From Solirubrobacteraceae bacterium (GTDB taxonomy: Bacteria > Actinomycetota > Thermoleophilia > Solirubrobacterales > Solirubrobacteraceae): a stretch of 64,000 nt of DNA. This document shows, in pieces, positions 7,973 through 24,631 of this stretch; within the stretch, counting starts at the first letter, position 1, and every line of letters begins with the position of its first letter. Both the position numbers and the translations under genes were made by a program. The notes beneath the pieces are model-generated. The model had not been told where the DNA came from, did no database searches, and saw nothing but the letters and a program-made list of their open reading frames with translations. The stretch lies in assembly GCA_036267075.1 (NCBI GenBank), contig DATAWT010000042.1, positions 4,529 to 68,528 of the forward strand, read 5' to 3'.

Positions 7973-9031
7973 TTAGCTGTCGGGCGCGCCCCGAGGAGCA
8001 CCTGGCGGCGGCAGCGTCCGCACACGCCCCTCAGCGTCGACTGAAGCGACAAGCTGCTCGACCGCGTCCCCAGCAGCGCCGAGGAGCATGGACGTGTCGT
8101 CGCCCTGCCCCTGTCCCAGCACCACGCCGACGGCCGTCTGCTCGCGCCCGGCGACGGTCACATTGGTGAAAAACGCCAGGCAGCCTCCAGCCGCGGAGTC
8201 CGACCCGGTCTTCCCGGCGTAGCCCGCAACGATCAGCGGGTCATAGTTGGTGAGTGTGCCGGCGACCGGCAGCGTCACGCTCGGCATCGAGACGATCTGG
8301 CGGAAGACCGCAAAGCGCATCGCCCGCTGGAACACGCGCAACTGGTCGGCGGCGGTGGAGACGGTGCTCGGATCGAACCCGCTGGGATCGGTGTAGATCG
8401 TGTGGTCCATTCCGAGCGCGCGCGCCTCGGCGTTCATCTCGGCGAGGAAGCGGGCTTCGCTGCCCGCGACCATGCCGGCGAGGATTTCGGCGATGTTGTT
8501 GCCGGAGGGGATCAACAGCGCCTCGAGCAGCTGGCGTTCGGTCAGCTGCTCGCCAGGCTGTACCGGCACCCGCGACTGGTTTTGCGCGGCGTCCTGCGCG
8601 GCGTCCTGCGCCTGGTCCTCGGTGACCGTCATCGTGAACCCTGCCTGCGTGACGCTCAGCGGGTAGCGCTCGAGCGTCAGGTAGGCGGTCATCACCTTCG
8701 CCACGCTCGCGATCGGGACCGGCACTTCGTGCGGGCTCGCCGCCGGCCGGCCGCCGCCGAGCACAAGCGCCGCCTGCCCCTGCTGCGGCCACGTAACCGC
8801 CTGCCGGGAGGTGCCGGGGGCGCGGTTGATGCTGGACGTCAGTGTGCGAATGGCCGTGCGGTTGGTGGTTGGTGTGCGCGCCTTCCCGTCCAGCAGGTGG
8901 GGGAGCGCCGCCAGCGCCGCGACGGCGAGAAGTAGCGCCAGGACCGTGCCGAGCAGCGTGCGGCGGCGCCGGCGGTACACGGTGATCCGGGTGCCGCGAG
9001 CGGCTGTCCGTGCCGGTTGCCTGAAGGGCAT
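7973..9031 (-). CDS. D-alanyl-D-alanine carboxypeptidase (serine peptidase S11 / PBP5-like)
   Basis: All three penicillin-binding motifs are present: SVAK (SxxK), SGNN (SxN) and KTGS (KTG). There is an N-terminal TM/signal stretch (LLGTVLALLLAVAALAAL). Start at M152 (MPFRQP) of track ORF 7973..9484. Confidence 0.85.
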   Translation of the reverse strand: MPFRQPARTAARGTRITVYRRRRRTLLGTVLALLLAVAALAALPHLLDGKARTPTTNRTAIRTLTSSINRAPGTSRQAVTWPQQGQAALVLGGGRPAASPHEVPVPIASVAKVMTAYLTLERYPLSVTQAGFTMTVTEDQAQDAAQDAAQNQSRVPVQPGEQLTERQLLEALLIPSGNNIAEILAGMVAGSEARFLAEMNAEARALGMDHTIYTDPSGFDPSTVSTAADQLRVFQRAMRFAVFRQIVSMPSVTLPVAGTLTNYDPLIVAGYAGKTGSDSAAGGCLAFFTNVTVAGREQTAVGVVLGQGQGDDTSMLLGAAGDAVEQLVASVDAEGRVRTLPPPGAPRGAPDS

Positions 9032-9841: not shown

Positions 9842-11110
9842 ATGGCCCGAGCGTTGCTCGCCAGGCTCGTTCCGCGTCGGCTGCTCCGCCTGCCGTCGCG
9901 GACGGTCCGCCTGCGGCTAACCCTGCTCTATAGCGGACTGTTTCTCGTCTCGGGGACTGTGCTCCTCGCGATCACCTACATCTTCGTCCGCAGTACGACC
10001 GGCCCCGACCTGATCGTCGCCGGGGCGAATCCGCACGGGACGACCGGGCCGCGCGCTCTCGAGAAAGCGCTCGCGAACCCGGCCGTCGCGCGCTATGTGC
10101 GCTACGTCGCCGGTCAGCAGTACACCAGGGTGGTCAGTCTGCACACCCACGATCTCCACCAGCTGCTCGTGTGGTCGGGGATCGCGCTGGCGATCGTGAC
10201 CCTGGTCTCGATCGCGCTCGGCTGGCTGGTCGCGGGCCGGGTCCTGCGCCCGCTGCGAACGATGACGGCGACGACCCGGCAGATCTCCGAGCGTAACCTG
10301 CACGAGCGTCTGGCGCTCGCAGGCCCCGACGACGAGCTGAAGGATCTCGGCGACACGATCGACGGCCTGCTCGCGCGCCTCCAAGCGCACGTCGCCGAAC
10401 AGCAGCGGTTCGCCGCCAACGCCTCGCATGAGCTGCGCACCCCGCTGTCGATCACGCAGACGCTCCTCGAGGTCGCCCGCAACGATCCGAACCGCGACAC
10501 CGGCGAACTCGTCGACCGCCTCCATGCCGTCAACGCCCGCGCGATCGATCTCACAGAGGCATTGCTCCTGCTGAGCCGCGCCGACCAACGATCCTTCACC
10601 CGAGACTCCATCGACCTGTCGCTGGTCGCAGAGGAAGCCGTCGAGACCCTCCTACCCCTCGCGGATCAACGCGGCACCACGATCGAGATCTCCGGCGACG
10701 TGACTCCCACCATCGGTTCACCCCCGCTCCTGCTGCAGATGGCCATCAACCTCGTCCACAACGCGATCGTCCACAACCTCCTCGGACACGGCACCGTGTG
10801 GGTGACGACCAGCCTTCAGCCGAGCAGCGCGGTGCTCACCGTCGAGAGCACCGGAGCGCACCTCACCCCCCAGCTGGTAGCCAGGCTTGACGAGCCGTTT
10901 CAGCGCGGCGCAGAACGCATTCGCACCGACGACCACGCGGGACTCGGGCTCGGGCTCGCCATCGTCAAGAGCATCGCCCAAGCGCACGAGGGAAGCCTCA
11001 CCATCATCCCGCGGGACGCCGGCGGCCTCCACGTCAGCGTGCGACTGCCGGTCGCTGCCGGTTCTGCCGCAACACCACGACAGCCACGGCGAGCGGGTTT
11101 CGGCCGCTAG
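9842..11110 (+). CDS. Sensor histidine kinase (TM-HAMP-HisKA-HATPase_c)
   Basis: Two TM segments, the H-box FAANASHELRTPLS, an N-box LVHNAIVHN and a G-box GLGLGLAIVKSI. Confidence 0.88.
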   Translation: MARALLARLVPRRLLRLPSRTVRLRLTLLYSGLFLVSGTVLLAITYIFVRSTTGPDLIVAGANPHGTTGPRALEKALANPAVARYVRYVAGQQYTRVVSLHTHDLHQLLVWSGIALAIVTLVSIALGWLVAGRVLRPLRTMTATTRQISERNLHERLALAGPDDELKDLGDTIDGLLARLQAHVAEQQRFAANASHELRTPLSITQTLLEVARNDPNRDTGELVDRLHAVNARAIDLTEALLLLSRADQRSFTRDSIDLSLVAEEAVETLLPLADQRGTTIEISGDVTPTIGSPPLLLQMAINLVHNAIVHNLLGHGTVWVTTSLQPSSAVLTVESTGAHLTPQLVARLDEPFQRGAERIRTDDHAGLGLGLAIVKSIAQAHEGSLTIIPRDAGGLHVSVRLPVAAGSAATPRQPRRAGFGR

Positions 11111-11132
11111 GCGAAACCGGTTTACTGCCAGC

Positions 11133-11819
11133 GTGGCGATTCTGCAGCGCAGCGACCTGATCGACGAGATGCTTGACGTCCGCGGCCGCGATGTCCTCGA
11201 CGTCGGGTGTGGCGAAGGCTGGCTGACGCGGTGGCTGCGCGATGGAGGCACCGGGCGCGTGATCGGCATCGATCCGCTCGCCGTGGCGATCGAGCGAGCC
11301 CGGGCACAGGACGAGAAGTTCGCCGACTGCTATCTCGAGGGGTCGGCCGGGGCGTTGCCATTCGATGACGGCAGCTTCGACATCGTCGTGTTCTTCAACA
11401 GCCTCCACCACGTGACCGGGGACGAGCTCGATGCCGCGCTGGACGAGGCCCTGCGCGTGCTGCGCGCGCAAGGGCTGATCTATGTGCAAGAGCCCGTGGC
11501 GAGAGGCGAATTCCACGAGCTGATGCTTCCGATCGAGGACGAAACCGGTAGCCGCGCCGCGGCGCAGGCTTTGCTCGATCGCGCGATCGCCGGCCGCCGA
11601 GTCGTTGAGCGATCACGCCGCGACGCTGTCGTCGGGATGACGTTCGCCGATTTCGAGGCATGGCACGAGCTGATGGTCAGCGTCGAGCCCGAGCGCGAAC
11701 GACTGATCGCCGCCCAACACGCGGAGCTCCACCACGAATTCGACCGGCTCGGCCATCCCGTCGAACACGGCCGCCAATTCGAGGTTCCCGTCCGCGTACG
11801 GATCCTCGCGCCGCGATGA
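11133..11819 (+). CDS. Class I SAM-dependent methyltransferase
   Basis: Motif I VLDVGCGEGW and a post-I acidic IGIDP. The in-frame GTG at 11133 follows the kinase stop. Upstream of 11133 the track ORF (10887..11819) runs through the 3' end of the kinase gene. Confidence 0.8.
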   Translation: MAILQRSDLIDEMLDVRGRDVLDVGCGEGWLTRWLRDGGTGRVIGIDPLAVAIERARAQDEKFADCYLEGSAGALPFDDGSFDIVVFFNSLHHVTGDELDAALDEALRVLRAQGLIYVQEPVARGEFHELMLPIEDETGSRAAAQALLDRAIAGRRVVERSRRDAVVGMTFADFEAWHELMVSVEPERERLIAAQHAELHHEFDRLGHPVEHGRQFEVPVRVRILAPR

Positions 11820-16928: not shown

Positions 16929-17735
16929 ATGAGCACTGGAACACACCCCGACACCTGGTCGCTGCGGCGTGATCTCAGGCTGGCCGGCTGGCAGATCCTC
17001 TACGAGCAGCGCGCATTCTGGCGCAACCGTGCACGGGCGTTCTTCTCCTTCCTCATGCCCGTCATGTTCCTCGTCATCTTCGCGACGATCTACCACGGCC
17101 AGACGATTCGTGGCCCGCACGGCGCGATCTCCTACGACGCCTTCTTTGTTCCCGGCATCCTCGCCTACGGCATCATCGCCACGACGTTCACCAATATGGC
17201 GATGAGCACCTCCATCCTGCGGGAACAGGGCGTACTCAAGCGGATGGCAGGCACACCGCTCCCGGGCTCGGCTTACGTCGCAGGGCGCATCGGCTCCACC
17301 CTCCTGATCACGACAGAGATGACCGTGGTGGTCCTCGTCATCGGACGCGTCGCCTACGGCGTCACGGTGCGCGGCGCGACCCTTCCCGGACTGCTTGCCG
17401 CGCTCGTCATCGGCAGCGCCAGCTTCACGGCGCGAGGTGTCGGCATCGTTCGCTACATCAAGAACGCGGAAGCGACGCCGGCGGTGATCAACTTCGCGAT
17501 CTTGCCGCTCACCTTCATCTCCGGCGTCTGGTTCCACTCGAACCTGTCGACGGGAATCACCGACATCGCCAAGGTCTTTCCGATACGACCGCTAGCTCAC
17601 GCGCTCCAGTATGCGTTCAACCCGTTTACCAGCGGCAGCGGCATCGAAGCCAACGATCTCGAGACACTCGCGATCTGGCTCGTCGTCGGAGTCTTCATGA
17701 TGGCCCGCTTCCTCCGTCGACCCGCAGGCGACTAG
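16929..17735 (+). CDS. ABC-2 type transporter permease
   Basis: 268-aa, six-TM-like hydrophobic protein directly following the DrrA-like ATPase. Confidence 0.82.
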   Translation: MSTGTHPDTWSLRRDLRLAGWQILYEQRAFWRNRARAFFSFLMPVMFLVIFATIYHGQTIRGPHGAISYDAFFVPGILAYGIIATTFTNMAMSTSILREQGVLKRMAGTPLPGSAYVAGRIGSTLLITTEMTVVVLVIGRVAYGVTVRGATLPGLLAALVIGSASFTARGVGIVRYIKNAEATPAVINFAILPLTFISGVWFHSNLSTGITDIAKVFPIRPLAHALQYAFNPFTSGSGIEANDLETLAIWLVVGVFMMARFLRRPAGD

Positions 17736-18601
17736 CTCGGCGGGGTGGGGTGAATGCTTTGTGAGGCCGCGGCCCGCGGCGCCAGGTCGGCGAGCGTGAT
17801 CGGGTGCCGAGGCGGATGATCGATAGCGACCGTCGATGACACCCGCAGGGTCTCGTCGACGTGCAGCATTTCGCCGGAAGCGAGCGGCCGCCAGCCGGAG
17901 TCCTCGTCCATCGGTTCGCTGGCGATTACAACGCCCGGCTTGGCGCCGAGGTCAGTGCTGTGCACGCGAACCGTGCCAGCGCTGCCGCTGTGCTCCAGCC
18001 CACCGCCTGGCTCCCGCTCGAGGACGTACAGCGCGTGGGTGTCGGGGTAGCGCAGAGCCCAAAGCTGGTTTCGGGTGGTGAGCACTACGTTCAGTGCGAA
18101 CAGCGGAAGCTCTTCGGCAACCCACCGAGCGGCGGCGGTCAAGCCTGCGGTCACGTCGCCGTCGTGCTGCTCGGTGTGCTTGGTCACGAGTGCGAAGAAG
18201 CGCTCGGAGTCGGTTTCACCGCTGACCAGGCTGCGGTAGCTTCCGAGCTCCGCCTCGAGCTTTGGCAGGCCCTCGATCACCCCGTTGTGAGCAAGCAGTC
18301 GACCCCGCTGTTCAAACGGGTGCGTGTTGGAGGGAGTTAGTCCGCCGGTCGACGCGAAGCGGATATGAGCGACGAATGTTTCCGATCGCACCTCCTTGGC
18401 TTCGCGCGCGAAGGCTCGATCCTCGAAGGCGGCGATCGGGCGCTTGTCGACCCTCGGCGTGCCGTTTGCGGCGAAGTACCCGAGTCCCGTGCCGTCAGGC
18501 TCGCGATGACTTTGAACCGCCAGGCTGTCGTCGGCCTGGAGCAGCCAGAACGTGGCCCGCACGCGATGCGGTGCACCGGACATACCAAATAGCCGGCACA
18601 T
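17732..18601 (-). CDS. Class II glutamine amidotransferase (stand-alone, YafJ-like)
   Basis: Begins MCRLFGMS with the catalytic Cys2, followed by ...AHIRFASTGG...NTHPF...LAHNG. Start at M147 of track ORF 17732..19039. There is no asparagine-synthetase domain. Confidence 0.82.
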   Translation of the reverse strand: MCRLFGMSGAPHRVRATFWLLQADDSLAVQSHREPDGTGLGYFAANGTPRVDKRPIAAFEDRAFAREAKEVRSETFVAHIRFASTGGLTPSNTHPFEQRGRLLAHNGVIEGLPKLEAELGSYRSLVSGETDSERFFALVTKHTEQHDGDVTAGLTAAARWVAEELPLFALNVVLTTRNQLWALRYPDTHALYVLEREPGGGLEHSGSAGTVRVHSTDLGAKPGVVIASEPMDEDSGWRPLASGEMLHVDETLRVSSTVAIDHPPRHPITLADLAPRAAASQSIHPTPPS

Positions 18602-18616
18602 CGCTGTCGAACCATA

Positions 18617-19180
18617 ATGCTCGGATCGGTGTCTCCCTCCGGCGAGGACGTCGCGTGCTCCGGCTTGCGCGTTCGTGAGTTGCTTCTGGCCGAGGTCGGT
18701 GTTCGGATCGACTACTTCCACGACGCCTCGGACGAGCACCTCCTCACGCTCGGCGTCGATCGTGCACTGCTGCCGTCGCGTCAGGCGTGGCGGGAGTTCT
18801 ACGAGACCGACTACCCGCGACCAATCCACGAGCGTGAGCACTACATCCTGGCCTGGGAGCTCGACGAGCGAGTGATCGGCTTCAGCTCTACCGACCAGAT
18901 CACCTACGGAGAGCAGGCCTTCATGCATCTGCACATCATCGATCCGCCGGATCGACGAGCCGGACTCGGAACCGAGCTGGTGAAGCTCTCCGCGGCCGCG
19001 TACTTTCGCGCGCTCGACCTGCAGCGCCTCTACTGCCAACCGAACGCGTTCAACGTTGCTCCCAACCGGACGCTGCAGCGTGCCGGGTTTCGCTACTTGT
19101 TCACCCGGCAGTTACAGCCCAGCCCGATCAATTTCCACCAGCCGGTCACTCGCTGGGTTCTCGACGAGCCACCGCGATAG
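18617..19180 (+). CDS. GNAT-family N-acetyltransferase
   Basis: Acetyl-CoA-binding-like core (IIDPPDRRAGLGTELV...NAFNVAPNRTLQRAGF). It is divergent from the GATase gene, with only about 15 nt between the two starts. Confidence 0.7.
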   Translation: MLGSVSPSGEDVACSGLRVRELLLAEVGVRIDYFHDASDEHLLTLGVDRALLPSRQAWREFYETDYPRPIHEREHYILAWELDERVIGFSSTDQITYGEQAFMHLHIIDPPDRRAGLGTELVKLSAAAYFRALDLQRLYCQPNAFNVAPNRTLQRAGFRYLFTRQLQPSPINFHQPVTRWVLDEPPR

Positions 19181-19256: not shown

Positions 19257-19440
19257 CTAATCCGGCGCGGGCCGCAAGTCGTACCGCAGGGGCCCGTGTC
19301 GCGCGCCTCGGGCGGCGGAGGGTCGAGAGGGCCGCGGCCGTCGTGCTGATCCCGTCATCCGGCCCGGCGCGAACTCACGGCGGCTAGGCGTCAGCGCCAG
19401 GGCCGTTCCGCGACCTGGCGGATTCGACGACCGGCTTTGA
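19257..19440 (-). pseudogene. Decayed relic of a VOC/glyoxalase-family gene
   Basis: The minus-strand translation NPPGRGTALALTPSRREFAPGRMTGSA parallels SPPGGGAALALSPGRGEFTPGRMTGIA of the intact VOC gene at 24248..24631. The DNA is roughly three-quarters identical over about 65 nt (19353-19420 versus 24419-24485). The flanks lose frame and similarity. Confidence 0.4.
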
Positions 19441-19580
19441 AAACTTGCTTGTTCGCGTCCTTGCGCGCGCTCCACGCGCGGCGTAAGACGACGACGGCTC
19501 GCCCGCCTGAACAGTTGGTTGCCGTGTGCGCGCCGTCTGTACGATTGGCGCGCGATCGGCCGAGCGACCGCAAACTGCAC

Positions 19581-20345
19581 ATGGCCCTGCCCAGCGACAT
19601 TCAGCGATTCATCGATGAGCAGGCCGAGCGCGCGGCCACGCGCTATGACGACCTGCGGGCCGTCGTGTTCAACGGTACGACGAAGCGCTCACCGGAGGCC
19701 AGCAACACCGATGGCCTGATCGCGATCGTGAGCGGGATCTTCAACCGTGTCGGCGTTGAGGTCGAGGAGATCCGGACGGTGGATCGCGATATCCCGCCGG
19801 GCCTGTGGCCAGACATGCGCGAACACGGCTACGACAGCGACGAGTTCCCCGACATCTACAAAGCCTCGATCGTGCCCGCGAACATCCTGATCATCGCGGG
19901 ACCGATCTGGTTGGGGGACCAGAGCTCGCTGACGCGCAAGATCGTCGAGCGCCTCTACGCCTACTCATCAGACGTCAATGACGCGGGCCAGTGGGCCTAT
20001 TACGGCAAGGTCGGCGCGGCGATCACCACCGGAAACGACGACGGCGGCAAGCATGTCAGCGCCCAGGTTCTCTACGCCTTGCAGCACATCGGACTCACCA
20101 TCCCGCCCCAGTCGGATACCTACTGGACCGGGGAGGCTGGACCTGGGCCCTCCTACCTCGACCCCGTCGCGGGTGGCGAGCACAACGCCTGGGCGACCCG
20201 TAACACGGTCTTCCTGGCCTGGAACGTGCTGCACCTTGCCCGCATGCTCACCGACGCCGGCGGCATCCCCGTGTACGGGAATTCGACGTTCGACTGGGAC
20301 TTGGGGCAGCCAGACCACCCAAACCCCGAGCACCGGCGGTCCTGA
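19581..20345 (+). CDS. Flavodoxin-like fold NAD(P)H-dependent FMN reductase family protein
   Basis: Start at M49 (MALPSD) of track ORF 19437..20345. Contains VVFNGTTKRSPEASNT...IIAGPIWLG...GGKH, typical of the FMN_red/flavodoxin_2 fold. Confidence 0.75.
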   Translation: MALPSDIQRFIDEQAERAATRYDDLRAVVFNGTTKRSPEASNTDGLIAIVSGIFNRVGVEVEEIRTVDRDIPPGLWPDMREHGYDSDEFPDIYKASIVPANILIIAGPIWLGDQSSLTRKIVERLYAYSSDVNDAGQWAYYGKVGAAITTGNDDGGKHVSAQVLYALQHIGLTIPPQSDTYWTGEAGPGPSYLDPVAGGEHNAWATRNTVFLAWNVLHLARMLTDAGGIPVYGNSTFDWDLGQPDHPNPEHRRS

Positions 20346-20349
20346 TCAT

Positions 20350-20368
20350 CCGAAGGCGGCGACTTCGG
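20350..20368 (+). terminator. Short GC hairpin right after the flavodoxin-like gene stop
   Basis: ccgaag-gcggcga-cttcgg (6-bp stem, 7-nt loop) followed by tt. Confidence 0.3.
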
Positions 20369-20446
20369 TTGCCGCAGCCCGCCTACCGCGGTCGAGGCCA
20401 GCGATCGCTCAGAGCCCTACGGCTGTCTCGAGGCACCATGGTCGCG

Positions 20447-21391
20447 TCAGCGTTCGCGCCGGTAGGCGATCAGCGCGCGAGGCAGCCCGGCGATCACAGC
20501 GAGCACTCGCAGCGCCCGCGCGAGGAGAAGGCCCGCCGAGCCTCGACGCGCGAGCGCATGGTCGCCCCGTAGCTGCTCTGCAGGCGGAAACAGCTTGGCC
20601 GCAACGTAGGCGAGGCGCGCCGCATGCGTGGGCCGCGAGCGCAGGTGCGAGATCGAGTACACCGACCGCGGCGCACGGCCTGAGGTAACGGCCCCGACGA
20701 GGTTGTAGTAGTCGGAGCCGCGCGGGCTGATCATGAGGCGTTCGGCAAGTTGGGCGCCCGCGGCGAGGCGCTGCAACCGCGCCGACAGCTCGGACTCGAT
20801 TCCGAGCTCGCGCGCCAGGCTGACGGCTGCTCCCCAGGTCACGTCATCGACGCGCGCAAGCGCCAGTTCGAGATCCTGCCACGGCTTGCTCGTTGGACCG
20901 TCGGCCGGCACCGGGTGAAGCGCCACGTTGAGCGTCGTGAGCACGGGGTCGGTGACGTTGACGCTCGCGCCGCCGACCTCCATTTGCGAGAGGTGCCTGC
21001 CGACCATCGCCCAAACGCGGTCGGCGGCGACACGCTCCATGCCGTGCAGCGTGCGATGCAGATCGACATTCGCCCCGTCGTCGCTGCGCAGGAAGATCCG
21101 GGCGTGATGTTCGTCGGCCTCGATCAGCGGATGCTCCTGTGCGCGGAAGCCGAGCTCGGTGAGCAGTGCCCGCGCGCGCTCGGTGTCATCGGGGCCGACG
21201 AGCAGGTCGCAGTCGCAGTAGACGCGCCGTTCCGGCTGCTCGCTGTAGAGCCGGCGCGCGATAACCGGACCCTTCAGGAGCACCGGCTCGATGGCTCGCG
21301 CACGCATCGCGCGCACGACCTCGGCCGTCCAGCTGTCGACACGCAACCGCAGCGCGGTGGCCACCGCCACGGCGCTGGGGCTCTCACTCAT
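20447..21391 (-). CDS. Uncharacterised nucleotidyltransferase family protein (NTP_transf_5-like)
   Basis: AIEPVLLKGPVIARRLYSEQPERRVYCDCDLLVGPDDTERARALLTELGF matches the hallmark of that family: LLKG ... R.. DxDLLV ... L...GF. Confidence 0.75.
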   Translation of the reverse strand: MSESPSAVAVATALRLRVDSWTAEVVRAMRARAIEPVLLKGPVIARRLYSEQPERRVYCDCDLLVGPDDTERARALLTELGFRAQEHPLIEADEHHARIFLRSDDGANVDLHRTLHGMERVAADRVWAMVGRHLSQMEVGGASVNVTDPVLTTLNVALHPVPADGPTSKPWQDLELALARVDDVTWGAAVSLARELGIESELSARLQRLAAGAQLAERLMISPRGSDYYNLVGAVTSGRAPRSVYSISHLRSRPTHAARLAYVAAKLFPPAEQLRGDHALARRGSAGLLLARALRVLAVIAGLPRALIAYRRER

Positions 21392-21473
21392 CCGTGGTCT
21401 CCGCCGGCCGGAAGCGGGTCGGCGGCCGCCGGCGGAGGAGCAACGCCGCGCGGTTCGATGCCGACGGGCTCGC

Positions 21474-22487
21474 TCAAGCCGGCGAGACGGCGGGTTGCGT
21501 CGCGGGCCGGCTGACCGCGGCCGAGCGAATCAGCGCCTCTATCGCCGGCACGCCCTCGGCGGGAGTGGCGGCTATCGCGCCGTCCGCGTCGATGAGCACC
21601 GCAGACGGCGTTGCGCGCAGCGCATAAAGGCCGAACACTTCGGACCCCTCCTGGGCGAGAGCCACACTCAGCCCCGCGTCGTCGGCAATGCGATCGACCT
21701 CGGAGTGCTCGCCCGAGAAAATCGCCGGAAGTGACACGGCGCCGGCGAGCGACTCCTGCCAGTCGGCGAGCTTCGGCAGCATCGTCAGGCACGGCATGCA
21801 TCGCGTGCTCAGGAACACCAGAATCGTTGGCTGCGGTGGGTTGAGCAGTTCCTCGAGCGTCTCGGCGGCGCCCCTGATCGCGGCAAGAGTGAAGGCGGGA
21901 GCTGCCGCCCCGCGCGGGAGCCCCGGCGGTTGCTTGGCAGCGATGACGGTGGCCAGCTCGCGGCGCAGGCGGCGTCCGTCGCCCCATTGTGCGGCTGCAG
22001 CCAGCCCCAGCACGAGCGCAAGCACCGCGGTGGCGACGAGTGCGTCTTGTGTGCCGTTGAGACTCGCGAGTCCGCCGTCGAGCGATGGTCCGCTGCCTGC
22101 GATCAGGATCAGCAGCGCCGGCGCTGCGAGCACGGCATTGCGCGCGAGCGTCGCGGGACCGGCCGGCTCGGAGTGGATCTGGCCGAAGCAATGACAGTCC
22201 GGTGCCCGCCCTTGCGACATGGCGCGCGCGACGCCGCCAATGAAGACGACCAGCAGCACCAGGGCGCCGGCGGCGCCGGCGACGGCCGTCGGGCGGATCA
22301 GCAGCGCGACCGCGACGGCCAGCTCGCAAAGCGGCAGAGCCACGCCGGCGAGCGCCGCCACTCGCACCGGCACACCGAACTCTCCAAGCGCCGCGCGTGA
22401 CCCCGCCAGATCGAGCAGCTTCCCGGCCGCCGCCAGCAGGAACACGCCCGCCAGAACGCAGCGGGCAGATAACAACAGTGCGCTCAC
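21474..22487 (-). CDS. MauE/DoxX-family membrane protein fused to a TlpA-like thioredoxin domain
   Basis: GTG start. The N-terminal part has four TM-like helices with the CHCFG motif (C98, C100). The C-terminal part is a thioredoxin fold carrying CMPC (C230-C233) in ILVFLSTRCMPCLTMLPKL, then ATPSAVLIDADG. Confidence 0.8.
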   Translation of the reverse strand: MSALLLSARCVLAGVFLLAAAGKLLDLAGSRAALGEFGVPVRVAALAGVALPLCELAVAVALLIRPTAVAGAAGALVLLVVFIGGVARAMSQGRAPDCHCFGQIHSEPAGPATLARNAVLAAPALLILIAGSGPSLDGGLASLNGTQDALVATAVLALVLGLAAAAQWGDGRRLRRELATVIAAKQPPGLPRGAAAPAFTLAAIRGAAETLEELLNPPQPTILVFLSTRCMPCLTMLPKLADWQESLAGAVSLPAIFSGEHSEVDRIADDAGLSVALAQEGSEVFGLYALRATPSAVLIDADGAIAATPAEGVPAIEALIRSAAVSRPATQPAVSPA

Positions 22488-22535
22488 GACTTAATCGTAG
22501 AGGCGCGCCGAGCCTGGAATGGCCGGCTGGCTCCT
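22488..22535. promoter_or_regulatory. 48-bp divergent intergenic region between the MauE-Trx and HprK-like genes
   Basis: Only 48 nt (gacttaatcgtagaggcgcgccgagcctggaatggccggctggctcct) separate the two divergent start codons. It must hold both promoters, or the mRNAs are leaderless. Confidence 0.3.
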
Positions 22536-23369
22536 ATGATCGCGCCGATGAGGCTGAGACGAGACCGCGCGGGATCGATGGCATTCGAAGCGTTTGGGGT
22601 CGCTGCGGAGGTGCGTTTTGGTGCCGCCGAGCTCGAAGCGCACGTGCGCGCGATTCTTCCCCCGGGCTGGCGCGCGTGCGACTCGGCGAGGGCCATCGCC
22701 ACGTTCTCGCTGCAACGTGTGGAGGTCGACAGCTACAGCGTGACCATCAACGGCAGCAGCGCGATCGAGCATGCCAGTCTCGATGTCGCCCTCGGGCTGA
22801 TCGACGCCGACATCCGCATGCTGATCGCGACGAAGACGAGCGACTGGATCTTCGTCCATGCCGGAGTGGTCGCGCTGGGCGATCGCGCACTGGTCCTCCC
22901 GGGTACGAGCTTCTCGGGCAAGAGCACGATCGTGCGCTCGCTAGTCGAGCTCGGCGCGACCTACTACTCAGACGAATACGCCGTGTTCGATGAAGACGGG
23001 ATGGTTCATCCCTATCCGCGGCGGCTCTCGATCCGAAGCGACGACGGCGCGGTGATCACCGAGCACGACGTCCGCGAGCTCGGCGGCGTAGCCGGCGAGG
23101 ACCGGGCAGCGGTGGGGCTCGTCGCACTGATCCGCTACCGCCCCGGCGCGCAGTGGCGGCCGGCGACGATCTCGGCGGGCGAAGGCACGGTCGCCGTGCT
23201 CACCAACACGGTCCCGGCGCAGCAGCGGCCCGGCGACTCGCTGCGCACCGTGGCCCGGGCGCTGCGCGACAGCCGTGTGCTGGTGGGCGACCGCGGCGAG
23301 GCGGGGGTGGCCGCGGAGGCACTGTTTGCGGAGCTAACCGCCGCCGGAAGCGAGGCTCCGCGTTCTTGA
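22536..23369 (+). CDS. HPr-kinase/phosphorylase-like P-loop protein (HprK-related kinase)
   Basis: FVHAGVVALGDRALVLPGTSFSGKSTIVRSLVELGATYYSDEYAVF resembles the HprK C-terminal domain P-loop (G.S..GKS) and the following SD-D/E segment. M5 or M15 are alternative starts. Confidence 0.72.
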   Translation: MIAPMRLRRDRAGSMAFEAFGVAAEVRFGAAELEAHVRAILPPGWRACDSARAIATFSLQRVEVDSYSVTINGSSAIEHASLDVALGLIDADIRMLIATKTSDWIFVHAGVVALGDRALVLPGTSFSGKSTIVRSLVELGATYYSDEYAVFDEDGMVHPYPRRLSIRSDDGAVITEHDVRELGGVAGEDRAAVGLVALIRYRPGAQWRPATISAGEGTVAVLTNTVPAQQRPGDSLRTVARALRDSRVLVGDRGEAGVAAEALFAELTAAGSEAPRS

Positions 23370-23452
23370 CCGCGCGAGCCTGGCGCGGGTGTCCCCCAGC
23401 GTCGGACGAATCTACCCTCGGTAGCGCTGCGTGACTTCGCTACCGTGACGCC

Positions 23453-24067
23453 ATGGCCGATCGACCGCGGGCACGCAGCACCGGCGTCCTCACCGAGCAG
23501 GTCGGCGACGAGCTCGTCGTCTACGACTCGGTCTCGCGCAGCGCGCACTGCCTTTCGGCGGACGCCGCCTCGGTGTGGTCGCTGTGTGACGGGGAGCGCT
23601 CGCCCGCCGGCATCGCCGGAGAGCTCGGCATGGCAGGCGAAAGCGTCGACACCGCGCTGCGTGAGCTCGGTGATGCCGGACTGCTCGAGAGCGTCTTTCG
23701 CCAACAGCAGGGTATTTCGCGACGCGATGCCGCGAAGCGCCTGGCGACGATCGGAGCCGCCGCAGTCAGCGCGCCGCTGATCTACTCGGTGGTGATCCCC
23801 GCCGCCGCGGCGGCAATGTCTGGCACGAGCGGCCCCACCGATCTGTGCGCCGGCAAGAACTGCGACGACCACAACGCCTGCACGATCGACGGATGCAACC
23901 CGCTCAACGGCCAGTGCACCCACACTCCGGTCGTCTGCGACGACAACAATCTCTGCACGATCGACACGTGCGATGTCACGAAGGGCTGCGTTTTCACGCG
24001 AGTGGCAAACGGCACGCCGTGTCAGGACGGGACGTGCCAGGGCGGTGTCTGCGTAAAGACCCCCTGA
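23453..24067 (+). CDS. PqqD/RRE-like domain fused to a twin-arginine-like hydrophobic segment and a 12-Cys repeat domain
   Basis: Residues ~10-80 are PqqD-like (ELVVYDSVSRSAHCLSADAASVWSLCDGERSPAGIAGELG...VDTALRELGDAGLL). Residues 88-121 are ISRRDAAKRLATIGAAAVSAPLIYSVVIPAAAAA. Residues 132-200 are CAGKNCDDHNACTIDGCNPLNGQCTHTPVVCDDNNLCTIDTCDVTKGCVFTRVANGTPCQDGTCQGGVC. Confidence 0.8.
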   Translation: MADRPRARSTGVLTEQVGDELVVYDSVSRSAHCLSADAASVWSLCDGERSPAGIAGELGMAGESVDTALRELGDAGLLESVFRQQQGISRRDAAKRLATIGAAAVSAPLIYSVVIPAAAAAMSGTSGPTDLCAGKNCDDHNACTIDGCNPLNGQCTHTPVVCDDNNLCTIDTCDVTKGCVFTRVANGTPCQDGTCQGGVCVKTP

Positions 24068-24189
24068 ACCGCTCGGACGCCGGCTTGAGCGTCGTGCGGT
24101 TTGCATTGGTGCTGGAGCCGGTTTCGAGGTTGCCGTTGGGGACGGCATAGTCGCCAGCGCGGATCGTTACGGTCATCACATCGCGCTGA

Positions 24190-24217
24190 GCGGTCGGTCG
24201 CTCACGCAACCGACCGC
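24190..24217. terminator. GC hairpin between convergent genes
   Basis: gcggtcggt (24190-24198) pairs with accgaccgc (24209-24217): a 9-bp stem with a 10-nt loop. It sits between the stop of the PqqD-fusion gene and the stop of the VOC gene. There is no U-tract. Confidence 0.35.
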
Positions 24218-24247
24218 GTCACGTGAGCGTCGGCGATCGCGCCGCCG

Positions 24248-24631
24248 TCACGCCTCCTGCGCCGCCACGATCAGCAGCTGGTTGCCGTCGCCGTCGCGGA
24301 CGAAGAACATCAGCGGCACCGTCCCGTCGCCGCCCATCAGCTCGGCGTCGACGTCGACGCCGGCGTCCTTCAGCTCAGCGTGGTCAGCGCGCGGATCGGG
24401 CGAGGTGAGCGCGATGCCGGTCATCCGGCCCGGCGTGAATTCGCCGCGCCCTGGGCTCAGCGCCAGCGCCGCGCCGCCTCCGGGCGGCGAGACCTCGACC
24501 CAGCGGTCGCCGTGGCCGAACGGCGTGTCGGCGGTCAGCGTAAAACCGAGTCGCTCGGTGTAGAAGGCGATCGCCGCGTCCTGGTCGGCGACCGGCACGA
24601 TTACACGGCCCACCTGCGTTATCTGCGGCAC
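24248..24631 (-). CDS. VOC (glyoxalase/bleomycin-resistance) family protein
   Basis: 127 aa. Contains IAFYTERLGF...RWVEVSPPGG...FFVRDGDGNQLLIV, typical VOC beta-alpha-beta-beta-beta modules. Confidence 0.82.
   Translation of the reverse strand: MPQITQVGRVIVPVADQDAAIAFYTERLGFTLTADTPFGHGDRWVEVSPPGGGAALALSPGRGEFTPGRMTGIALTSPDPRADHAELKDAGVDVDAELMGGDGTVPLMFFVRDGDGNQLLIVAAQEA

Follow-up and report, generated by a model that had tools for sequence, protein, structure and literature searches.

We describe here the gene at positions 23453–24067 (+) of a stretch of 64,000 nucleotides (nt) from a Solirubrobacteraceae bacterium (assembly GCA_036267075.1, contig DATAWT010000042.1, positions 4,529 to 68,528 of the forward strand); this whole stretch is hereafter called the window. 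The product of the gene, a protein of 204 residues, combines a PqqD-like recognition element of the kind known from peptides synthesized ribosomally and modified post-translationally (RiPP recognition element, RRE), a signal-like segment of the twin-arginine translocation (Tat) type and a cysteine-rich domain, and we are highly confident of this three-module architecture. With moderate confidence, we interpret the gene as encoding the pre-pro-protein of a secreted disulfide-rich mini-protein, whose leader would consist of the RRE (residues 12–78) and the Tat-type signal (residues 89–124). The segments of the gene are as follows.

23453..24067, + strand: whole gene, RRE – Tat-like signal – Cys-rich (CTDC) protein of 204 residues, stop codon included
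23453..23485, + strand: N-terminal extension, residues 1–11, in which P5 and R8 are conserved; precedes strand 1 of the RRE
23486..23686, + strand: PqqD-like RRE domain, residues 12–78, from the AlphaFold2 fold, Foldseek and family-level matches to hidden Markov models (HMMs)
23687..23716, + strand: variable linker, residues 79–88, with the highest column entropy of the leader (2.75 bits, 27% gaps) and an AlphaFold2 predicted local distance difference test score (pLDDT) of about 54
23717..23743, + strand: twin-arginine n-region S-R-R-D-A-A-K-R-L, residues 89–97, from conservation of the arginine pair
23744..23800, + strand: hydrophobic h-region ATIGAAAVSAPLIYSVVIP, residues 98–116, the most conserved segment of the family
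23801..23824, + strand: Ala-rich c-region AAAAAMSG, residues 117–124, with a putative signal-peptidase site (small-x-small), from conservation
23825..24064, + strand: predicted exported cargo, residues 125–204, with 12 Cys, from PF00526 and all-beta hairpins modelled by AlphaFold2 at pLDDT 93–97
23858..23932, + strand: CTDC repeat 1, approximately residues 136–160, from PF00526
23933..24004, + strand: CTDC repeat 2, approximately residues 161–184, from PF00526, followed by a C-terminal cap with three Cys

A continuous reading frame with three modules

The three modules and their order had been proposed in an earlier note made by a model from the DNA letters alone, and sequence, family and fold comparisons bear out all of them. 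The open reading frame (ORF) exists, with a translation identical to the letters quoted in the note, and its positions were correctly assigned (residues 88–121 correspond to nt 23714–23815, and residues 132–200 to nt 23846–24052). Its G+C content is 0.84 at third codon positions versus 0.55 at second ones, the same coding signature as that of the neighboring genes in a window with 70% G+C. A near-identical protein, P0001, is encoded on a public 97-kb metagenome contig (reported 100% identity, with one difference at residue 64).

The note had named an artefact of assembly or sequencing, in which an indel between 23693 and 23845 fused a PqqD gene to a gene for a secreted protein, as something to be checked. 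Such an artefact is refuted by the comparative data, and we consider it practically impossible: the same unbroken architecture is seen in many independent assemblies, that is, in P0001, in 18 full-length relatives, in three species genomes of GTDB and in 150 or more clusters defined at 50% identity. An internal start yielding an ordinary N-terminal Tat precursor was rejected, since position 60 lacks a conserved Met (Val or Ala in P0002, P0003 and other relatives) and the frame is continuous throughout the family. No second copy of the family was found in the window, and a scan of 20300–24400 for promoters and terminators detected nothing.

A predicted PqqD/RRE fold at the N-terminus

In the AlphaFold2 model of the window protein, built from an alignment of 64 sequences, residues 1–80 have a pLDDT above 90, with values of 90–97 across the RRE domain. 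The predicted order of secondary structure elements is beta-beta-beta-alpha-alpha-alpha (strands 12–17, 20–25 and 30–34; helices 36–43, 51–58 and 62–74), and an additional strand of two residues is seen at positions 6–7 in the models. The best Foldseek matches in PDB are RRE proteins of lasso-peptide systems, namely TbiB1 (5v1u, 5v1v) and the lasso B1 protein 6jx3, with target-normalised template modelling (TM) scores of 0.65–0.74 and probabilities of 0.99–1.0; they are followed by the RRE domains of TigE, TruD, ThcOx and CteB.

HMM matches were counted in 64 relatives, and residue conservation was taken from an alignment of 211 relatives. The PqqD model PF05402 is matched by 44 of the 64 relatives at E ≤ 0.01 (best 3.2e-11). 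The most common NCBIfam match of the family is TIGR04353 (40 of 64), whose title is “HPr-rel-A system PqqD family peptide chaperone”. The N-terminal part of the family is matched at cut-off by none of the Pfam or NCBIfam models. Conserved residues of the domain are Y24, D25, H32, C45, D46 and G47, and in the N-terminal extension P5 is kept in 192 and R8 in 183 of the 211 relatives. At the level of the family and of the predicted fold, the assignment of the N-terminal domain to the PqqD/RRE fold is solid.

A Tat-type signal segment in mid-protein

The segment that follows the linker starts with a nearly invariant twin-arginine motif: R90 is present in all 211 relatives, R91 in 210, and Ser or Thr at position 89 in 208. 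More divergent members carry SRRRFMQR, SRRSFMKR or SRRRFINR, which correspond to the textbook Tat consensus. The best sequence match of the family profile in PDB is the Tat signal peptide of the nitrous-oxide reductase NosZ; the Tat model TIGR01409 (TAT_signal_seq) is matched by seven of the 64 relatives and the Pfam model TAT_signal by one. The invariance of the arginine pair, the NosZ match and the TIGR01409 matches support the Tat-like motif described in the earlier note. Its placement in the middle of the protein was also rightly recognized: a Tat signal is ordinarily located at the N-terminus, and here the motif starts at residue 89, behind a folded domain, an arrangement with [S/T]RR and a hydrophobic stretch that recurs in 205 of the 211 sequences inspected.

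In the h-region G101, P108, S112 and P116 are near-invariant, and in the adjoining Ala-rich end A119 is kept in 151, A121 in 169 and Ser or Thr at position 123 in 162 of the 211 relatives (30 gaps). Position 117 is Arg or His in nine of the ten relatives of alignment A3; a basic residue in the c-region of a signal is a known “Sec-avoidance” feature. The low confidence with which AlphaFold2 models the middle segment (pLDDT 54–66) is expected of a signal or membrane segment. From these sequence features we infer export via the Tat pathway. A lipoprotein was considered and rejected: a lipobox-like AAS-C junction is found in some relatives only, and the first Cys of the window protein lies about ten residues past the Ala run.

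A conserved leader with interchangeable cargos

The 12 Cys of the window cargo are located at positions 132, 137, 143, 148, 155, 162, 168, 173, 179, 190, 195 and 200, and the two CDDxNxCTIDxC units, which the earlier note had reported together with 12 Cys within residues 132–200, are both present. The note had compared this region to Cys-rich repeats of large secreted proteins, and this likeness proved right: the cargo matches the Pfam family Dicty_CTDC (PF00526) in two stretches (E = 1.1e-17, 64 bits versus a cut-off of 27). The same family is matched by 19 of the 64 relatives (best 4.4e-30), with two or three repeats among close relatives. In genomes of species representatives, 431 Dicty_CTDC-like stretches akin to the window cargo were found; they are distributed over many bacterial phyla and include many from Myxococcales. 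Related repeats were also observed in methanogenic archaea (L031, L056 and L079, metagenome-assembled genomes (MAGs) of Methanotrichaceae / Methanosaeta).

A word-indexed search identified 72 related protein clusters besides P0001: 18 full-length relatives with a CTDC cargo (49–73% identity) and about 50 further relatives in which the similarity is limited to the first ~125 residues. When representatives of clusters at 50% identity were searched exhaustively with a profile of residues 1–126, 7971 representatives were obtained at E ≤ 1e-3, 4513 at E ≤ 1e-10 and at least 150 at E ≤ 1e-30; among the 150 matches listed, nearly all reach into or through the signal region. The combination of RRE and signal is therefore present in at least 150 such clusters. 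The full architecture was found in three GTDB species genomes, all from Solirubrobacterales, in a single profile scan of genome contigs that was dominated by matches to the CTDC repeats. Taxonomically named close relatives also belong to Solirubrobacterales, and one distant member comes from Acidobacteriota.

The alignment of 211 relatives shows how unevenly conservation is distributed. The column entropy is 1.85 bits in the RRE, 2.75 in the linker, 1.62 in the n-region and 1.39 in the h-region, and rises to 2.79 bits, with 45% gaps, in the cargo behind the signal. This is the pattern typical of RiPP precursors: a conserved leader (1.4–1.9 bits), a hypervariable tail (2.8 bits) and one to four paralogs per locus. 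The cargos range from 45 to 240 residues (median 80); most are Cys-rich, with a modal count of 12 Cys. Counts are even (6, 8, 12, 14 and 16) in the listed cargos with a clear junction, where Cys located just upstream of the fixed cut, if present, were included.

Several unrelated types of cargo follow the leader: CTDC repeats, modules with knottin-like spacing, 57-residue peptides with six Cys, an MXAN_6577-like Cys-rich domain, and a type that is not Cys-rich. The spacing C-x6-C-x6-CC-x3-C-x4/5-C occurs in two modules each in the cargos of P0027, P0032, P0043 and P0049, and the loci with such two-module cargos are L092 (7977–8588), L095 (7959–8588), L099 (5376–6293) and L101 (8001–8591). Judged by the pattern only, these modules resemble inhibitor cystine knots; if the fold is real, they would be bacterial knottin-like peptides behind the same leader. 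In P0028, P0030, P0038 and P0040 (L008, 8001–8798) the same RRE and signal precede a cargo of about 125 residues that is not Cys-rich and is probably beta-rich, and one relative, presumably of this subfamily, matches the NCBIfam choice-of-anchor D model. The existence of this subfamily indicates that the leader is not restricted to disulfide-rich cargos.

A four-gene cassette

In the window, the family gene is the last of four genes that form a cassette (20447–24067). The three partner genes are the following.

20447..21391, – strand: nucleotidyltransferase-fold protein PF14907 (NTP_transf_5), E = 9.1e-24
21474..22487, – strand: MauE with five predicted transmembrane segments and the motif C98-H-C100, fused to a thioredoxin-fold AhpC/TSA domain with the motif C230-M-P-C233
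22536..23369, + strand: HprK-like P-loop kinase, an ORF of 277 residues with the Walker A motif GTSFSGKST, from TIGR04352

The fusion protein matches PF07291 (E = 1.6e-25) and PF00578 (E = 2.4e-8) and, weakly, the MauD model TIGR02661 (E = 1.7e-4). Its C98-H-C100 motif is located between the predicted transmembrane segments TM3 and TM4, and one more transmembrane segment precedes the thioredoxin-fold domain with C230-M-P-C233. For the kinase, the best curated match is TIGR04352 (HprK_rel_A), with E = 2.6e-17; the match is partial, covering model positions 59–171 with 62.8 versus 200 bits. The public gene call of an identical kinase protein comprises 263 residues, with an apparent start at M15. 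The kinase-like protein has 2958 homolog clusters, none informatively named (those named are “hypothetical protein”), and PF27840 is precomputed on some of the homologs. PDB sequence searches with the kinase and the nucleotidyltransferase returned no matches.

The comparison of gene neighborhoods covered 23 non-redundant loci of public assemblies and metagenomes. In 16 of them the family gene is adjoined by the kinase-like gene, the gene of the MauE-thioredoxin fusion is likewise present in 16, and the PF14907 gene in 12; several other loci are cut by contig ends. The full set of kinase, PqqD-like and PF14907 genes was found in the window and in ten further loci (L005, L007, L010, L088, L091, L092, L094, L101, L106 and L107), and the cassette also accompanies the divergent subfamily with SRRRFMQR. 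It occurs in at least three gene orders or orientations at protein identities of 50–80%, which suggests functional linkage rather than shared ancestry of the region; the genes beyond the cassette are ordinary and are not conserved with the family gene. The intergenic gaps in the window cassette (48–180 nt) leave little room for a separate precursor gene, and no further conserved ORF of at least 80 residues was found across the loci, ORFs of less than 80 residues not having been screened. The large family with interchangeable cargos and the conserved cassette are aspects absent from the earlier note.

Loci contain one to four family paralogs, and in L010 and L088 two of them flank the cassette. 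Four paralogs, three of them in tandem, are found in L094 (1530–3171 and 5960–6634) beside the kinase-like, MauE-thioredoxin and PF14907 genes; the tandem cargos have 57–58 residues and six Cys and end in GVCYS or GLCIS. In L003, L005, L007 and L106 the cassette is located inside surface-polysaccharide loci, whose flanking genes encode Wzy_C, several glycosyltransferases, a polysaccharide deacetylase, an extracytoplasmic function (ECF) sigma factor and an ABC-2 transporter; the window copy lies outside such loci. In the acidobacterial locus L006 (CP065003.1), two distant members (8001–8543 and 10706–11233) flank genes for a thioredoxin-like DUF1223 protein and a PrmA-like methyltransferase, a Peptidase_M50B gene lies next door, and none of the kinase, MauE and PF14907 genes is present; the same kind of leader may here be served by another set of maturation genes. 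Elsewhere in the window, a short ORF (19257–19580, –), weakly similar (E = 7e-8) to a glyoxalase-family protein at 24248–24631, partly overlaps an FMN-reductase-like gene (19437–20345) and is probably a chance or relic ORF.

Comparison with known systems

Among the nearest named systems is the HPr-rel-A system, a still uncharacterized cassette known from comparative genomics, which in its canonical form consists of the TIGR04352 kinase, the stand-alone PqqD chaperone of TIGR04353 and a PF14907 protein. Both systems encode a PqqD-like domain, an HprK-like P-loop kinase and a PF14907 protein together. They differ in that the window proteins score below the curated cut-offs, the PqqD domain of the window is part of a fusion with a Tat-type signal and a cargo, and the MauE-thioredoxin gene is an additional, fourth conserved gene of the cassette.

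Lasso-peptide clusters provide the best structural match of the RRE (the B1 proteins TbiB1 and 6jx3, with the TM scores given above), and those of the pseudomycoidin and paeninodin type contain, like the window cassette, an HprK-family kinase and an NTP-transferase-like enzyme (the PsmK/PsmN pair). In the biosynthesis of pseudomycoidin, PsmK, of the HprK family, is required for the phosphorylation of a C-terminal Ser, and the NTP transferase PsmN for the addition of hexoses to the phosphate (PMC6993621). The window differs from these clusters in its disulfide-rich cargo of 80 residues and in its RRE, which is located in cis with the putative substrate. A lasso-peptide cluster was rejected as an interpretation, with neither an Asn-synthase-like cyclase (C) nor a B2 protease in the cassette; the nearest amidotransferase (17732–19039) matches GATase_4 only and is not among the ORF clusters conserved across loci. 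Biosynthesis of pyrroloquinoline quinone (PQQ) was rejected as well, there being no pqq-type genes among the neighbors.

Methylamine dehydrogenase has a small subunit with a twin-arginine leader. In the MauE/MauD-methylamine dehydrogenase system, as in the window, a MauE protein with a CxC loop and a thioredoxin-fold partner with CxxC stand beside a small, Cys-rich exported protein. The window system differs in that MauE and thioredoxin are fused, the cargo is no dehydrogenase subunit and an RRE is located ahead of the signal; among the window ORFs scanned against Pfam (674–32383) there are no genes for dehydrogenase subunits, no mauG and no other mau genes. MauE has long been linked to the maturation of the very Cys-rich small subunit, and a 2026 preprint showed that MauE proteins replace DsbB in Escherichia coli, with an essential CxC in the TM3–TM4 loop, which is described as periplasmic (bioRxiv 10.64898/2026.03.05.709764). 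In a genome-mining study, mauE and mauD were noted in candidate RiPP clusters of Streptomyces with predicted precursors containing at least eight Cys.

RiPP precursors with large protein-derived leaders, or fusions of precursor and enzyme, are represented by the NHLP/Nif11-type leaders and the borosins. The family resembles them in its conserved N-terminal region of about 80–120 residues, its hypervariable C-terminal part and the presence of several paralogs per locus; unlike in these systems, the leader itself consists of an RRE and an export signal, and the “core” is a folded multi-disulfide domain. Typical CTDC proteins are expected to carry long repeat arrays; compared with Dicty_CTDC proteins, the window cargo, with its two repeats, is a minimal module that follows a dedicated leader, and not a long array. 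No account of the fusion or of the cassette was found in the literature searched, and neither a paper there nor a curated model was found in which an RRE precedes a twin-arginine signal and an exported cargo that varies. We rate the protein family as a new combination built from known parts.

Proposed mechanism and alternative explanations

According to the mechanism that we propose, the RRE and the conserved signal segment would form a cytoplasmic docking platform for the HprK-like kinase and the PF14907 nucleotidyltransferase. The twin-arginine signal would carry the C-terminal domain across the membrane, with the RRE staying inside, and the membrane-bound MauE-thioredoxin fusion would introduce the six disulfides into both CTDC repeats and their cap. 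Signal peptidase would then cut past the Ala-rich A-x-A end, around A121/S123, and free a product of about 80 residues. Export with disulfide formation outside the cytoplasm is the most probable part of this scheme, and we consider it likely; that the disulfides are formed by the MauE-thioredoxin protein we infer by analogy. As to the fate of the exported domain, we lean towards cleavage rather than anchoring. The earlier note had left open whether the protein is an anchor or releases a peptide, and the A-x-A end together with the hypervariable, multi-copy cargo favors release without proving it.

The part assigned to the kinase and the nucleotidyltransferase is more tentative; by analogy with the systems described above, it is possible that they act on the family protein, and we would not count on it. 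Both enzymes appear to lack signals and membrane segments (from their translations, read by eye), and if they are cytoplasmic they must act before export. The observation that the enzymes are conserved and the cargo is variable suggests that they most likely recognize, and perhaps modify, the leader, in which the conserved hydroxyl residues are S/T35, S/T89, S112 and S/T123. We can only guess at a role of the product as a mini-protein of the binding, inhibitor or antimicrobial type.

Several observations weigh against the interpretation as a secreted pre-pro-protein matured by the cassette. The window protein itself scores below the gathering score of PF05402 (E = 0.052, 14.3 bits versus 23.4) and below the curated cut-off of TIGR04353 (E = 0.0044, 18 bits versus 35); the PqqD assignment made in the earlier note thus falls short for the single sequence and stands on the family and the fold. 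We know of no characterized bacterial Tat substrate with its signal behind a folded domain. The conserved and fairly hydrophobic h-region (Kyte-Doolittle mean of about 1.7 over 19 residues, by hand arithmetic) is also compatible with a permanent anchor in the membrane or with a specific contact to a protein. A C-terminal Ser, the acceptor of the lasso type, is present in just 13 of the 211 relatives, and this lack of conservation means that the target of the kinase, if any, lies elsewhere. In five of the 23 loci, all three partner genes are missing within a distance of about 8 kb. Finally, a crude positive-inside count (Lys plus Arg per loop of 0/3–4/1/2/0–1/5–6 in the window protein encoded at 21474–22487 and its homologs in 13 loci) would place the CxC loop and the thioredoxin domain of the MauE-thioredoxin protein in the cytoplasm, which conflicts with the orientation described for MauE in the preprint. 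We give the count less weight than the published orientation; by homology, the thioredoxin domain would lie outside, so that a DsbB-like and a DsbA-like unit would be combined in one chain.

These data could also be explained by an uncleaved type II membrane protein, in which the signal is a permanent anchor, the RRE is cytoplasmic and the CTDC head is displayed for binding or adhesion or as the outer half of a trans-membrane enzyme scaffold. Such a protein would account for the h-region of about 19 hydrophobic residues being the most conserved segment, which is unlike ordinary cleaved signals; CTDC repeats typically occur in large proteins that are secreted or exposed on the surface, and several cassettes sit in surface-polysaccharide gene clusters. 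A plain anchor, however, offers no obvious role for the conserved A-x-A end and the Ser or Thr that follows, the near-invariant P108 and P116 would break a helix inside the segment, and hypervariable, multi-copy and very small cargos (45–100 residues) look like released products; we regard the anchor as plausible, though less likely than release. It is still less likely, and in our view improbable, that the protein is not a substrate and acts as a membrane-tethered RRE chaperone presenting an unrecognized small precursor to the kinase and the nucleotidyltransferase, with the Cys-rich domain having an unrelated extracellular role. Known RREs of RiPP pathways do sit on or with enzymes and bind a separate leader peptide, and the closest curated family, TIGR04353, is a stand-alone chaperone; yet the short gaps of the cassette and the lack of an additional conserved ORF above the screened size (80 residues) speak against a separate precursor, and the conserved leader with a hypervariable tail makes the family itself look like a substrate.

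Weak matches to the winged helix-turn-helix families HTH_47, HTH_Crp_2, MarR and ArsR, and the automatic annotation of some relatives as ArsR-family proteins, could indicate a membrane-bound regulator or sensor similar to ToxR or CadC, with a DNA-binding N-terminal domain and a Cys-rich domain that senses a signal. This is very improbable: the domain has three strands followed by three helices, its best structural matches are RRE proteins and not DNA-binding winged helices, and PqqD models are its most frequent match (44 of 64). Hypervariable cargos and tandem paralogs are not sensor-like either, and the partner genes encode a kinase, a nucleotidyltransferase and a disulfide oxidase rather than the targets of a regulon.

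An extension of the secreted pre-pro-protein model concerns the RRE itself, which may be a built-in export checkpoint. As RREs bind leaders, it would bind its own h-region (APLIYS) in cis and shield the signal from the translocase, and the kinase and the nucleotidyltransferase would act on S/T89, S112 or S/T123 to license or block the release. AlphaFold2 predicts a strand at residues 110–114 (IYSVV) of the h-region both in the full-length model and in a model of residues 1–126, at low confidence (pLDDT about 55); in the latter model, the sole possible partners of this strand are the RRE sheet and residues 6–7. If the strand is paired with beta3, the RRE would hold its own signal peptide as in RRE-leader complexes, and this would account for the h-region being conserved better than any other part of the family. 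TorD, DmsD and NapD are separate chaperones that guard the Tat signals of cofactor-containing substrates, and the RRE would be an in-built counterpart of such proofreading chaperones. We consider the checkpoint speculative and its existence doubtful.

Implications

In known systems, RREs belong to modifying enzymes or accompany them as partners. In this family, the RRE is located on the presumed substrate, ahead of an export signal, and this arrangement recurs across at least 150 clusters (50% identity), possibly across thousands. The family provides a concrete candidate substrate for the orphan kinase and PF14907 nucleotidyltransferase of the HPr-rel-A type and for the newly recognized MauE disulfide oxidase, and the combination of these genes in one small cassette makes the function of the orphan enzymes directly testable. 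A folded domain upstream of a Tat motif also bears on how the Tat pathway handles signal peptides.

The interchangeable cargos appear to be an untapped reservoir of bacterial disulfide-rich mini-proteins in soil metagenomes and MAGs, for which the common leader may serve as a handle in genome mining. Should the RRE indeed act as an export checkpoint, enzymes would control the export of an entire class of hypervariable mini-proteins rich in disulfides, knottin-like ones among them.

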